Source: Escherichia coli (GTDB lineage: Bacteria; Pseudomonadota; Gammaproteobacteria; Enterobacterales; Enterobacteriaceae). From it: DNA of 64,000 nt. The translations under genes were made by a program, and so were the position numbers. The stretch lies in NCBI RefSeq assembly GCF_003334385.1, contig NZ_QOWN01000019.1; one strand, given 5' to 3'. The notes beneath the pieces were generated by a model, which saw nothing but the letters and a program-made list of their open reading frames with translations, was not told the DNA's origin and made no database searches. Below are positions 11,124-33,059 of the stretch, piece after piece; within the stretch, counting starts at the first letter, position 1; each line of letters starts with the position of its first letter.

Positions 11124-11152
11124 TAAAAAAATCCCCGCCAAATGGCAGGGAT
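11124..11152 (-). terminator. Rho-independent terminator of cspA
   Basis: On the minus strand ATCCCTGCC-ATTT-GGCGGGGAT followed by TTTTTTT. Confidence 0.85.
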
Positions 11153-11179
11153 CTTAGATTCTGTGCTTTTAAGCAGAGA

Positions 11180-11392
11180 TTACAGGCTGGTTACGTTACC
11201 AGCTGCCGGGCCTTTAGCGCCGCTTTCGATGGTGAAGGACACTTTCTGACCTTCGTCCAGAGATTTGTAACCATCGTTCTGGATAGCAGAGAAGTGTACG
11301 AACACATCTTTAGAGCCATCGTCAGGAGTGATGAAGCCGAAGCCTTTGTCAGCGTTGAACCATTTTACGATACCAGTCATTTTACCGGACAT
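11180..11392 (-). CDS. cspA: Major cold shock protein CspA (70 aa)
   Basis: [21 protein letters not shown]... with RNP1/RNP2 cold-shock domain motifs. Confidence 0.97.
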
Positions 11393-11610
11393 AGTGTATT
11401 ACCTTTAATAATTAAGTGTGCCTTTCGGCGATATGGCGTGCTTTACAGATTTTGAAGCGTTAAAGGAATGTGCACTACGAGGGGTATCAACGATAACTCT
11501 TGAAGGGACTTGCCTTACTACACTGCTTTAATGGTCTGTACGTCAAACCGTTGATGTGCATTAAGCCACGCATTGGCGGGTGATGCAACAATTATTTTTC
11601 ATATTTATGA
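11393..11610 (-). promoter_or_regulatory. cspA promoter, AT-rich UP region and ~159-nt 5' UTR with cold-box
   Basis: On the minus strand -35 TTGCAT (11583-11588), 17-bp spacer, -10 CTTAAT (11560-11565); cold-box TGACGTACAGA (~11535-11545). Confidence 0.75.
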
Positions 11611-22748: not shown

Positions 22749-22825
<77 letters not shown>

Positions 22826-22915: not shown

Positions 22916-23002
22916 GTAGGCCTGATAAGACGCGTCAGCGTCGCATCAGGCAAATGTGCCGGCCATTGTCGGATGCGGCGCGACCGCCTTATTCGACCTA
23001 CA
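22916..23002. repeat. REP (repetitive extragenic palindromic) elements
   Basis: GTAGGCCTGATAAGACGCGTCAGCGTCGCATCAGGC and a degenerate GCCGG..GGATGCGGCG..CCTAC unit. Confidence 0.75.
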
Positions 23003-25212: not shown

Positions 25213-25310
25213 GCCTGATGCGCTCCTCTTATCAGGCCTACGAAAATTCTGCAATGTATTGAATTTGCACGATTTTGTAGGCCGGATAAGGCGTTAACGC
25301 CGCATCCGGC
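25213..25310. repeat. BIME: two inverted REP elements between dppA and dppB
   Basis: GCCTGATGCGCTCCTCTTATCAGGCCTAC and GTAGGCCGGATAAGGCGTTAACGCCGCATCCGGC. Confidence 0.85.
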
Positions 25311-29438: not shown

Positions 29439-30710
29439 TTACTCAATCAGCTTCAACAGTGGCGACAAGCATAGCAAAATGCCGTACAGCAGAATCAGCC
29501 AGGCTTTAAATCCGCGAAGTTTTTCCAGTTGTGCGACTTTATAGATCAGGAAAAACGGAATGAGGCACGACACAATACCATATAACGGGCTTCCCAACTG
29601 AAAGAACACCAGCACCGATACACGAAACGAAACCCAAATCGTCAACGTAATGACGATAAAAGCGCAGATCGCCAGAGTCAGCACGCGTGAGTTAATTTTC
29701 TTGGTATCAATAATTCGGCTTAACAGATTGAGAATAATGCCTTTAATGGCCTCGTGGAAACCGAGATAAATGCCAAAGAATGCGGTCAGTACGGCAAAGA
29801 TATTAAGCACCGTAGAGGTGATATGAATGATATGCCCAGGGATCACCTGCGCGGCCAGCGCCAGTGCTGAGATATTTTGTTCAAAGGCAGAAACGGCTTC
29901 TTCGTGGCTAATTGAGAAGGTAAACGAAAAGGCAAAAAACAGGATCACCGCGATGAGCGTGATATAACTAATTCGGTGGGTACGCAGCGCGAGCCGGGTT
30001 GCCAGTACTTTATCCGCTTCCCGTTTACGATAGGCAATATTCATTGGGTTAAGTACCTGAATAAATACTGCAGAAAAGAAGCAAAATGGAATGGTAAGCA
30101 AGACATCGCGGAAAAAGACGGAGGCTTGCGGGAAGGCGGTTATATTGGCGAAATTCCAGTGCGGGATCATCGCAAAACCGAACACGACAATAATCCCTAC
30201 TTTGACCACCACCATTGGCCCGGAAATCTTAAACAGTAATCGTTCACCACCAGACGCAATCGCCACCAGTACGGCGAAAATAGCGACTTTATAAAGTAGA
30301 GATTGTGAAAGATCGGCATCGGTTAAACCGAAGGTTTTCAGGTACGAGGCGCTGTCGAAAACCACGGAGAGAGAGTAGATAAAAATCCCGTGGATAATCA
30401 TCAAAAAGTAGATAACCCCGAGGAAAATTCCCCAGTTCTTCCCCAGGTAATGACTGATAATATCGGTGTAGTCATTACAGGAATCGCTTTCAGAAAGGGT
30501 TTTTAAATAAATGTCCTGCACTACCCAGGTGGCAGGATAAGCAATGATCGCTGCGGTAATAAATACCCAAATTCCCTTCAAGCCAATTTGTACTGGCATC
30601 AGCACGGTTCCGGCACCAATCGCCATGCCTATGCATAATAAAACCCAGCCGAAGTCGTAGCGTGTAAACGGCAATTTCTGATTGTGTTTCGATAGTGTGT
30701 TGTGCTGCAT
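29439..30710 (-). CDS. yhjV: HAAAP-family (hydroxy/aromatic amino acid permease-like) inner membrane transporter (423 aa)
   Basis: Start [13 protein letters not shown] (complement of 30708-30710); polytopic membrane protein. Confidence 0.85.
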
Positions 30711-31070
30711 AAAGTCCTGTCCAGAAAGAAGTCGGCCTCGCAAAAATGAATAAACCCAGTTTCTCTTGCGCAACAGGTGGAGAAGTCGAATACGCAGTAT
30801 GTAAAAAATGAGGCAACAGATTCACTGGGGAGGTCGCGAGGAGGCGCAATTCTACAAAATTGCGCATTTCACTACCAGTCTGGAGTCAGCCCGGATATGA
30901 ACTGCAACTATTGCAAATAAAGAAATTAAGCTGGAAGGCATCGCGCAATGAGGAAGATTGCCGGGTGCTGACAGTAAAAAGCAATCGTAGAATCAGCGGC
31001 AAGCCGGAAAGGTTCCGGTGAGGCGCAATGTTGCGGGGGCTTTATCCCTGGTGGCATTGGTTGCTGGAGA

Positions 31071-31136
31071 GAGAAAACCCCCGCACGTTGCAGGTATGCA
31101 CCTGACAACACCACGGGGGCTAATCTTGACTCTAGA
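31071..31136 (-). ncRNA. rdlD: Rdl antisense sRNA (antitoxin of LdrD), overlapping the ldrD leader
   Basis: Minus strand reads GTCTAGAGTCAAGATTAGCCCCCGTGGTGTTGTCAGGTGCATACCTGCAACGTGCGGGGGTTTTCTCTC, ending in a GC-stem plus U-run; boundaries approximate. Confidence 0.6.
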
Positions 31137-31185
31137 CCACTCAAGAATAGCCGCGAAACGTTGTCATTACAACACAGGCGGCTAT

Positions 31186-31293
31186 ATGACGTTCGCAGAG
31201 CTGGGCATGGCCTTCTGGCATGATTTAGCGGCTCCGGTCATTGCTGGCATTCTTGCCAGTATGATCGTGAACTGGCTGAACAAGCGGAAGTAA
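31186..31293 (+). CDS. ldrD: Ldr-family type I toxin peptide (35 aa)
   Basis: MTFAELGMAFWHDLAAPVIAGILASMIVNWLNKRK; it is the C-terminal part of track ORF 31018-31293. Confidence 0.85.
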   Translation: MTFAELGMAFWHDLAAPVIAGILASMIVNWLNKRK

Positions 31294-31343
31294 CGTGTCA
31301 TGCGGGCGTCAGGCTGCCGTAATGGCAATTTGCGCCCGGACCA

Positions 31344-31374
31344 GGCCGCAGGGGGGAAACTCTGCGGCCTTTTT
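31344..31374 (+). terminator. Hairpin terminator between ldrD and the convergent bcsG end
   Basis: GGCCGCAG-(GGGGGAAACT)-CTGCGGCC followed by TTTTT. Confidence 0.75.
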
Positions 31375-31379
31375 CGTTC

Positions 31380-33059
31380 TTACTGCGGGTAAGGCACCCA
31401 GTCGCCGCCGTTCAGGCGAACGTACGGTTTATCCTGGTATTGAATAACTACTGCATTTGAGTTCTCGGAGACCGGTGCTGTTTGTGGCAACCCACTGGTG
31501 AGTTTTTTCCAGTCAACATTGTCTTCGGTGAAAATCTTGCCATCGAGAACGCGAACCACCAGATCGGAGATAGCCAGGAAGCTGCTCGGTTGTTCGATGA
31601 CAATCGGTGCCCCCTGATGCGGTGCCTTCATGCCGAAGAATTTCACCCCAACGGGGACGTCGGTGATAGACGGGCTAGGGATATCACGTAGGCCAGATAC
31701 CTGCATTCTGTCGCCCTTCAGCGCGCCGCCGTGTTCCGGCACCACGACCACCATCACTTTACGACCCGATTTCTCAAGTTCAGTAAAGAAGGCGTCCAGT
31801 TCATCAAAGAATTTCTGCGCCCGCGCTTTGTAATCCGCTGTTTTGCTGACCCCCGGATAATGGTTGCCGTCATGCAGTGGAAGCGTGTTGTAGAACGTGG
31901 CACTACGGCTGTTTTTATCTTTTTCGGTAACGTCCAGCCAGCGGTTAAGCACAGCGGTATCGTCATAAACCGGCGAACCATCAAAGCCCAGCAAAATAAC
32001 CGGCAGATTTGTTTGATCCATCAATTCGCTCTGCATGCCGCCATTTTCGCGAACTTCTTTCAAAAAACCGCCGAACTGGCCGTTATGTCCCATCATCAGG
32101 TGCTGGGTAAAGCCCAGTTTCGAAAGGTTATCAAACAGATAGCAGTCGTTATTTGCCGGTTGATACAGATTAGTGTGCGAAGTCTGCCCGCAGCTGGCGC
32201 GCAGTAAACGGATCGCCGCCGGGCCACTGTAGGAGGTGGCGGAGTTAAAGTTCTTGAACTCAATATCGAAATGCGACCACAGTGGATGCGACATCAACCC
32301 GGCGGCTTCTATATCCGACCAGGAAAGCGAACAGATGTTAATCACCAGTAGTTCAAATGGCTGAGCATCAGCGGGCAGCGAAGACGGGAAGGTCGATTTA
32401 CGTTTCGCCTCCGCGTTATAGAAATTATTCAGCCAGGCGTTAAGGTTCGCCGTTGTTGGCGGTGCAGTTTGTGCGGGCATATCACCCACTACCGGTGCGC
32501 CACCCGTCGCCGCAACGGTTGCCGCTGCGTTACCACCCGTCGTTGTTACAGTGGTCGTCGGTTGTCCGGCTGGCCACAAGGAGAAACTTGGTCCCGCCAG
32601 GGTAAGTACGTTCAGCCATAGCAGTATGGCAACCACAAAAACGGTAATGCGAATCCATTGTGACAGGAATAACCAGGCCACTAATAAAACAAAAATGGCC
32701 CCAATCATCTGCCAGTTAATAAAGCGTGTGACAAGGTCGATTAAATAATCGGTACTGAACCCCGCCACCTGCGAACCCTGGCTCATTATGCTTTCCGGGC
32801 CAGGCAACCAGGTGTCATGCCAGAACAAAGCAAAGCCGATCGGCAGGGCAATCCAGTGGCGCAAGCGATGCAGGCTGTAGCGCGGAAGGGGCATCAGCAG
32901 AAACGCGGCAAACACCAAATTGAGGAGCGGATGGAAGTTAAGATATCCCGCCCACAACAGGCCGAACTTAACCAGAAAATAGAAGTTCCAGCCGGAAAGG
33001 CCGCGCCAGTATTGCCAGAGGGAAGAAGGCATGGCGGTATTTTGCGTAAATTGAGTCAT
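31380..33059 (-). CDS. bcsG: Cellulose phosphoethanolamine transferase (559 aa)
   Basis: N-terminal membrane domain plus periplasmic alkaline-phosphatase-like domain; last gene of bcsEFG. Confidence 0.92.

Follow-up and report, generated by a model that had tools for sequence, protein, structure and literature searches.

Does the intergenic stretch between yhjV and the bcs locus, in a 64,000-nucleotide piece of an Escherichia coli contig (NZ_QOWN01000019.1; hereafter the window), hold a type I toxin-antitoxin pair and, if so, how would a small antisense RNA silence a toxin gene that it does not overlap? A first-pass annotation, made from the letters alone, had proposed the pair ldrD/rdlD at this place. 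Comparison with E. coli K-12 MG1655 answers the first part of the question directly. The bases around the locus are identical (4,001 of 4,001) to MG1655 positions 3,698,000-3,702,000 in reverse orientation, window position p corresponding to MG1655 position 3,731,273 - p. The MG1655 annotation mapped onto the window gives ldrD (b4453) and rdlD (b4454) flanked by yhjV and bcsG (Table 1), which bears out the proposed pair and its surroundings. The locus is the well-known LDR-D, the ldrD/rdlD of K-12 MG1655 itself and not a mere relative. It is also a locus already known, having been annotated in K-12 for more than two decades and being represented by Pfam and Rfam families, a solved structure and a dedicated literature.

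The "long direct repeat" (LDR) family of type I toxin-antitoxin elements, with LDR-D among them, was reportedly described by Kawano et al. in 2002 (Mol Microbiol 45:333). An LDR element is a repeat of about 400-500 bp that occurs in several copies per genome, each copy with one ldr and one rdl gene, and this is what we found for the locus analyzed here. RefSeq annotates ldrD at the same place in E. coli genomes; in the RefSeq record of XL1-Blue ldrD is listed and rdlD is missing, a reminder that the RNA half is still left out by automatic annotation.

Table 1. Features of the LDR-D locus and its flanks, in window coordinates
Feature	Position	Strand	Details and source
yhjV	29439..30710	-	Flanking gene; MG1655 annotation
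Putative ldrD -10 box	30988..30993	+	TAGAAT; suggested by conservation
Predicted ldrD mRNA	31000..31376	+	Leader, ORF, 3' UTR and terminator; putative 5' end
5'-terminal leader hairpin	31003..31019	+	GCCGGAA-AGG-TTCCGGT; RNAalifold helix 2
rdlD (b4454)	31074..31137 (Rfam match 31072..31137)	-	MG1655 annotation; Rfam RF01813
Best candidate "ldrX" start (putative)	31126..31128	+	TTG under the RdlD 5' tail; GGGGG 6 nt upstream
Putative rdlD promoter	31144..31172	-	-35 TTGTAA 31172..31167, 17-nt spacer, -10 TATTCT 31149..31144, predicted start 31137
Hairpin over the ldrD ribosome-binding site	31147..31185	+	ATAGCCGC (31147-31154) pairs with GCGGCTAT (31178-31185)
ldrD (b4453)	31186..31293	+	MG1655 annotation
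3' UTR hairpin	31303..31338	+	CGGGCGT...GCGCCCG, apical TGCC/GGCA; RNAalifold helices 13 and 14
ldrD intrinsic terminator	31343..31375 (stem 31343..31370)	+	11-bp stem, 6-nt loop, T run; terminator scan
bcsG	31380..33059	-	Flanking gene; MG1655 annotation

For comparison we relied on an alignment of 22 homologous units from five genera (Escherichia, Citrobacter, Pseudocitrobacter, Klebsiella and Salmonella). Scanning one genome per species for an exact pattern contributed units from Escherichia sp. E1V33, E. whittamii, another E. coli, Citrobacter sedlakii and two Pseudocitrobacter species, and a BLAST search of a plasmid collection gave further copies from Klebsiella aerogenes, Salmonella and E. 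coli records. All collected units carry Rfam-positive rdl RNAs. K-12 itself has three other copies, ldrA/rdlA, ldrB/rdlB and ldrC/rdlC (LDR-A, -B and -C), located between kdsA and chaA; they share with LDR-D the same cassette of about 390 bp at about 80% identity, with the 35-codon ORF and the leader elements, and their rdl RNAs score 86-92 bits. Mean column identity across the four K-12 copies is 88% in the alignment. The differences lie in the peptide, LdrD being 57% identical to LdrA-C (PMC8309996), in the 5' tail, bulge and apical loop of RdlD compared with RdlA-C, and in the reported mode of action, which is ATP depletion for LdrA and nucleoid condensation for LdrD (PMC8309996).

A match was present in all complete E. 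coli genomes (5,426 of 5,426), at a median of four places per genome, and a copy at least 95% identical to LDR-D (D-type) was found in 5,398 of the 5,439 matching records. In K. aerogenes two copies sit between dppF and bcsG, that is, at the LDR-D position but without yhjV. Published reports of Ldr are confined to Enterobacteriaceae and include no mobile element (PMC5367252), and our sample agrees. We also obtained 27 "plasmid" places in E. coli genomes and 21 PLSDB records, which at first seemed to contradict this: four of the five examined have chromosomal neighbourhoods (chaA-ldr-kdsA, dppF-ldr-ldr-bcsG and yajD-ldr-tsx among them), and these four records are pieces of chromosome labelled as plasmids.

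The toxin gene starts at ATG 31186 and runs for 35 codons to a TAA stop at 31291-31293 on the plus strand, with the translation MTFAELGMAFWHDLAAPVIAGILASMIVNWLNKRK. As the first-pass annotation had warned, a mechanical ORF caller mis-sizes it: what is reported instead is a 91-codon, GTG-initiated ORF (31018..31293), of which ldrD is the 3' end. The family search that had been suggested for the peptide gave a full-length match to Pfam PF13940 (Ldr_toxin; E 6.9e-27, 93.7 bits; residues 1-35 align with all 35 positions of the model), and the sequence is identical to chain A of PDB 5LBJ, "Small toxic polypeptide LdrD". That entry is an NMR structure in micelles, of an alpha-helical membrane peptide (PMC8309996). 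The signature of the Fst/Ldr superfamily, which combines PXXXG within a hydrophobic helix with a conserved Trp ahead of a charged C-terminus (PMC7472228), can be read in LdrD as P17-V-I-A-G21, W30 and the C-terminal NKRK. A scan against NCBIfam found no family at E <= 0.01; at E <= 10 the only hit was Fst, with 13.8 bits against a cutoff of 26, a sub-threshold score that fits a superfamily relation and not Fst membership.

Conservation of the peptide in related genomes, one of two points on which the first-pass annotation had staked its reading, is clear. No unit has an indel within the ldrD ORF (22 of 22), which is intact at exactly 35 codons in 21 of them, and the homologues retain the WHDLAAP core as well as PXXXG, the Trp close to the C-terminus and the basic tail. 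Pairwise dN/dS of the ldr ORF ranged from 0.10 to 0.64 in the eight pairs with an estimable dS, a ninth pair being saturated. At the nucleotide level the leader is more conserved than the ORF (mean pairwise identity of 85% vs 78% over the 22 units), which fits a leader that is constrained as RNA on both strands.

Could the real gene nevertheless be the 91-codon ORF, or another N-terminally extended form, the 35-codon reading being a truncation of it? In LDR-D, and likewise in the D-type units of Escherichia sp. E1V33 and E. whittamii, no stop interrupts this frame between 31018 and the end of the ORF at 31293, and the frame offers starts at GTG 31018, ATG 31096 and TTG 31126. We consider this very improbable, since the short form matches the 35 positions of the Pfam model end to end, the solved peptide is a 35-mer, and the 35-codon ORF is the one annotated both in RefSeq and, by curation, in MG1655. 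Moreover, indels of 1, 2 and 4 nt shift or close the upstream frame in LDR-A, -B and -C and in other homologues, a type of change that the 35 codons never carry. The Shine-Dalgarno sequence (SD) AGGCGG, at 31176-31181, lies 4 nt before ATG 31186, a start that is invariant in the 22 units, and most of the extension is simply the complement of rdlD and of its promoter. The 35-codon peptide at the end of a longer, spurious ORF is thus the reading that we retain.

Overproduction of LdrD is toxic and is relieved by co-expression of RdlD (PMC4147584, PMC8309996, PMC8406316); in the literature its effects are a rapid growth arrest and nucleoid condensation. A strain deleted for ldrD/rdlD is viable, and RdlD gives no rescue once LdrD has been made (PMC8406316).

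On the opposite strand, the covariance-model search matched Rfam RF01813 (rdlD) at 31137..31072 over the whole model (positions 1-66 of 66), scoring 87 bits where the gathering threshold is 50, with an E value of 5.1e-17. The antisense RNA that the first-pass annotation had placed at 31071-31136 is therefore there, and its coordinates were one base off. The predicted fold has a minimum free energy (MFE) of -29.5 kcal/mol (z = -3.98; none of 200 shuffled sequences was as good) and consists of a single-stranded 5' tail, a long interrupted G+C-rich stem (GCCCCCG/CGGGGG) and a 3' UUUUCU, just as the GC-rich stem and U run had been described. The architecture is the same in 12 folded homologues, and a compensatory change from C-G to U-A was observed in K. 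aerogenes. MAFFT mis-registers the apical stem, and covariation there was judged from the individual folds, as a qualitative statement.

The rdlD gene lies wholly inside the ldrD 5' leader, with its 5' end (31137) 49 nt upstream of ATG 31186. In all 22 units it is located upstream of the ORF and antisense to the leader, with no overlap with the ORF. The small RNA had been called convergent; it is indeed on the opposite strand and upstream, and the wording was loose in that rdlD stands head-to-head (divergent) to the ldrD ORF, inside the ldrD leader, while the two transcription units face each other. The title of a 2012 review by Kawano calls this arrangement "divergently overlapping". A candidate promoter for rdlD can be read from the sequence, its -35 TTG and -10 TA...T being kept in 22 of 22 units; matching the consensus at 8 positions out of 12, it did not reach the 9/12 threshold of our scan.

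Detection of an antisense transcript was the second point on which the earlier reading depended. The RNase III product of the ldrD/rdlD duplex, about 21 nt long, we tentatively place at about 31097-31130 of the window, by conversion from the older K-12 numbering in which it was published. Published northern blots detect both the ldrD and the rdlD RNAs, and double-stranded RNA capture revealed a peak of about 21 nt, generated by RNase III, inside the overlap (PMC7373196). That chance alone put a short hydrophobic ORF next to a hairpin in this intergenic region, both being generally common, can be dismissed given the Pfam and Rfam E values above, the joint conservation of the whole cassette in 22 copies spread over five genera, and the experiments published on this exact locus (PMC4147584, PMC7373196, PMC8406316). 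We are all but certain of the whole reading, namely that the locus is the LDR-D type I toxin-antitoxin cassette, in which the ldrD mRNA is structured and RdlD blocks LdrD synthesis post-transcriptionally. The value of the check is one of calibration, in that a 35-codon gene and a 66-nt RNA had been recognised from raw sequence.

The limits of the ldrD transcript can be predicted from comparative data. Homology among the four K-12 LDR copies extends from about 30985 to about 31378 and begins at a -10-like box; TAG(A/T)AT is found there in all 22 units, with T4, A5, G6, A8 and T9 invariant. We infer that the LDR-D unit begins near 30985-31000, about 40-55 bases upstream of 31040, and that transcription probably starts near 31000, which would give an mRNA of about 375 nt ending near 31375. 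The length of the ldrD mRNA is reportedly about 370 nt according to Kawano (2002), in agreement with this prediction. The span given in the first-pass annotation, 31040-31374, was right in ending at the terminator, and its start fell inside the leader, leaving out the promoter and the first 40 nt or so. A scan for consensus sigma-70 promoters between 30780 and 31420 found none, and both putative promoters were read from conservation; the one of ldrD was missed by the scan because its -35 is weak.

The predicted ldrD mRNA is highly structured, with a minimum free energy of -181.6 kcal/mol (z = -7.2, 100 shuffles). The consensus structure of the 22 homologues, which was derived from the same 22 sequences used to test it, contains 16 compensatory pairs, compared with 7.0 +/- 1.6 in shuffled alignments and 0-5 in slid controls. 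Along the leader we found, in this order, the 5'-terminal hairpin, a near-invariant stretch, the mirror of the RdlD hairpin, a TCTTGA/TCAAGA hairpin and a hairpin over the SD. All 22 units keep the stem of the 5'-terminal hairpin, with covariation at its innermost pair (A-U in 10, G-C in 6). Downstream of the ORF, the apical pair of the 3' UTR hairpin also covaries (C-G in 19, U-A in 2). The terminator, 5 nt from the stop codon of bcsG, is 100% paired (helix 15), three of its pairs showing compensatory changes in Salmonella. As regards a hok-like fold-back inhibition, in which 3' processing activates a full-length mRNA that is otherwise inactive, the single-sequence minimum free energy fold additionally pairs GGCGCAA (31022-31028) with UUGCGCC (31331-31337), a pairing that the consensus fold does not keep; both segments are near-invariant, with one G-U wobble change in the 22 units, so covariation cannot decide on it.

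How, then, would RdlD silence ldrD? The RNA is perfectly complementary to the leader between 49 and 114 nt upstream of the ldrD start codon, as expected because it is cis-encoded. It overlaps the 5' UTR of ldrD and not its ribosome-binding site (PMC4147584, PMC8167048); its mode is listed as "inhibit protein synthesis" (PMC8309996), and translation is reported to be inhibited (PMC4147584). Since the pairing site does not cover the ribosome-binding site, repression must be indirect. In the consensus fold the SD AGGCGG lies within the 3' arm of the hairpin at 31147-31185. This hairpin (RNAalifold helix 8) has eight pairs, with 98.3% of cells paired over the 22 units and five invariant pairs, and showed no compensatory change among the 22 units; the rdlD -10 box shares sequence with its 5' arm, which leaves two possible causes for its conservation, one of them a constraint at the DNA level. 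In the inner hairpin (helix 9) a single pair covaries, being U-A in 15 units and C-G in 4.

The best-supported reading of these data is that the SD hairpin would be the default off state of ldrD, and that RdlD would block whatever opens it. A weak-to-moderate promoter (-10 at 30988-30993) would drive a stable and highly structured mRNA of about 375 nt, the last third of which encodes LdrD, the 35-residue alpha-helical peptide of the inner membrane. By the fold of the mRNA itself the SD would be hidden in the conserved hairpin, and the gene would be off by default. RdlD, an unstable RNA of 64-66 nt made from the opposite strand within the leader, pairs with the leader and blocks LdrD synthesis after transcription, most likely by preventing the event that opens the SD hairpin. 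This event may be the entry of ribosomes at a start further upstream that RdlD covers, as in the published "ldrX" model, with its parallel in the mok of hok/sok, or it may be a refolding or processing of the leader. The duplex is a substrate for RNase III, whose cleavage would be a secondary, clearing step.

Alternatively, RNase III cleavage and decay of the ldrD mRNA could be the main route of RdlD action, in place of a translational block through a leader ORF or refolding; we think this unlikely. The ldrD mRNA is reportedly stable although RdlD is constitutively expressed (Kawano 2002), which argues against decay as the main route. The published RNase III data point both ways: the product of about 21 nt lies inside the overlap, full-length ldrD and rdlD are slightly more abundant and longer-lived when rnc is mutated, and only then does a shorter ldrD fragment build up (PMC7373196), all of which suggests decay, yet the effect of rnc on full-length ldrD is described as slight (PMC7373196), and reviews report inhibition of translation by RdlD (PMC4147584, PMC8309996).

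Among the ways in which the SD hairpin might be opened, coupling to an ldrX leader ORF is a model that has been proposed and is unconfirmed (PMC4147584, PMC8167048). Our best candidate for its start is TTG 31126, located opposite the single-stranded 5' tail of RdlD; no other start codon within the region that RdlD covers is conserved in copies that are not of the D type. TTG 31126 is found in 20 of the 22 units, being absent from the two K. aerogenes copies, and its frame is open to the ldr ATG in 20 of 20; a second leader frame is also open in 16 of the 22 units, so that the open frame is not striking. The frame relative to ldr varies: 13 units, LDR-D included, have it in frame, five (LDR-A, -B and -C, one Escherichia sp. 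E1V33 and one E. coli O145) have an ATGA overlap, and two have a +20 overlap. A 1-nt indel before the SD separates the K-12 copies in this respect, the candidate leader frame being in frame with ldrD in LDR-D whereas in LDR-A, -B and -C it stops at the ATGA overlap. With TTG 31126 in frame and no stop in between, LDR-D could produce an extended LdrD of 55 residues. In the consensus fold both the GGGGG and TTG 31126 are base-paired. That RdlD gates ribosome entry at TTG 31126, with the transit of ribosomes melting the SD hairpin and possibly giving the 55-residue extended LdrD, seems to us doubtful.

Two other leader starts were rejected, and a third was set aside. A 25-codon ORF at 31028..31105 has an SD (GAGG) and a conserved ATG; it ends 80 nt before the ldr start and carries indels in homologues, with a 1-nt deletion in LDR-C, a 4-nt insertion in K. 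aerogenes, a 1-nt deletion in Salmonella and, in C. sedlakii, a 2-nt insertion together with a change of the ATG to ACG. ATG 31096, as a general leader start, is found in D-type copies only, and its AGG is immediately adjacent to the ATG. Finally, TTG 31161 would open an ORF of 20 codons that runs across the start of ldrD; it lacks an SD and is not within the stretch that RdlD pairs with.

The arrangement invites comparison with two known systems. In hok/sok (mok) of plasmid R1 and its chromosomal homologues, as in ldrD/rdlD, a small antisense RNA lies wholly in a long 5' leader; in both, the toxin mRNA is stable, the antisense RNA pairs upstream of the toxin ribosome-binding site without overlapping it, RNase III cleaves the duplex, and a leader ORF has been proposed. 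The two systems have no sequence homology, however, and Hok, of about 50 residues, is from another family. Coupling to a leader ORF has been demonstrated for hok and not for ldr, as has 3' processing (PMC4147584), and, unlike hok/sok, ldr/rdl gave no post-segregational killing (PMC5367252). Apart from the locus analyzed here, the Rfam scan located a sok-family RNA elsewhere in the window (9299..9438). The second system, Fst (par of pAD1), resembles LdrD in the toxin: the two peptides share the PXXXG in the transmembrane helix, the Trp (W30) and the charged C-terminus (KRK) (PMC7472228), and nucleoid condensation after overproduction is common to both. The regulation of Fst differs, in that the pairing sites of RNAII are the 3' end and the initiation region, and that of Rdl is the 5' leader.

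If ribosome entry at TTG 31126 did turn out to be what RdlD gates, the leader would work solely through the transit of ribosomes, the peptide encoded there being irrelevant, and the paralogues would differ in the product made upon derepression. The comparative data single out the SD hairpin, and the candidate upstream start with its variable frame, as the places at which the action of RdlD may be probed.

In the consensus fold of 22 aligned homologous ldr cassettes, the leader segment GUUGCUGG (window 31060-31067) pairs with the segment UUAGCGGC inside the ldrD ORF (31228-31235), which codes for D-L-A-A. The helix was 100% paired in 22/22 units, and both of its sides were changed in two sequences. 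Such a pairing would close off a single long-range domain containing the entire RdlD target and the site of ldr initiation; however, because the ORF side is also under coding constraint, the fold only tentatively suggests this arrangement.

The RNA half of the ldrD/rdlD cassette routinely goes unannotated. Of two K-12 records compared with each other, only the curated MG1655 record carries an rdlD annotation; in the PGAP annotation of the derivative XL1-Blue (NZ_CP132550), identical in sequence, ldrD is listed and the rdlD ncRNA is absent. For yhjV (window 29439..30773, minus strand), a mechanical ORF caller runs to a TTG start at 30773, giving 444 codons; the annotated gene, starting at 30710, is 21 codons shorter. 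This over-extension is the same type of mis-sizing that the first-pass annotation had described for ldrD.

Five further RNA families were matched in the window, all above their Rfam gathering scores. The sok match should be the chromosomal hokA/sokA locus, given that its position adjoins cspA, which would give the window another type I toxin-antitoxin cassette besides ldrD/rdlD.

Further Rfam matches in the window
Feature	Position	Strand	Match
sok antitoxin (RF01794)	9299..9438	+	70.1 bits (gathering score 59), low alignment confidence in the 3' half
cspA thermoregulator	11125..11552	-	500.8 bits
tRNA	22749..22822	+	
naRNA4	22919..22998	-	69 bits
ES036	25234..25276	-	56.7 bits

A 503-bp contig (coverage 0.66) of the Bacillus sp. 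EB106-08-02-XG196 assembly (L007) shares 96-98% identity with the E. coli LDR-D cassette, and is almost certainly a contaminant. Four PLSDB records of 150-790 kb, labelled as "non-mobilizable" plasmids (NZ_CP031350, LR134124, CP082688 and NZ_CP141085; L014, L015, L016 and L018), have core chromosomal ldr neighbourhoods (chaA-ldr-kdsA-sirB1-prmC, dppF-ldr-ldr-bcsG and secF-yajD-ldr-tsx), and look like chromosome fragments wrongly assigned as plasmids. The PLSDB match list for ldr also holds several multi-megabase "plasmids". The Pseudocitrobacter vendiensis copy (L010 1244-1634) has a premature stop at codon 31 (TGG to TAG) that removes the basic C-terminus, with no loss in its leader or in rdl, which scores 85 bits; here the toxin was probably inactivated and the antitoxin retained.

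Possibly the sole ldr-type copy on a genuine plasmid, among those examined, is an LDR-like cassette on the 107-kb plasmid NZ_CP141607 of Lelliottia sp. JS-SCA-14 (L017 1499-1880). It keeps the conserved -10 box, 5' hairpin, SD hairpin and ATGACGTTC start, and its rdl RNA scores 50.5 bits in Rfam against a gathering score of 50. In place of the ldr ORF, we found an unannotated 30-codon hydrophobic peptide that differs from Ldr (MTFKEALLLAVVTSVVGPVLVALIRHFFKF; 1697..1789), for which searches of Pfam and NCBIfam returned 0 matches. This cassette may represent a swapped toxin on an Ldr regulatory chassis.
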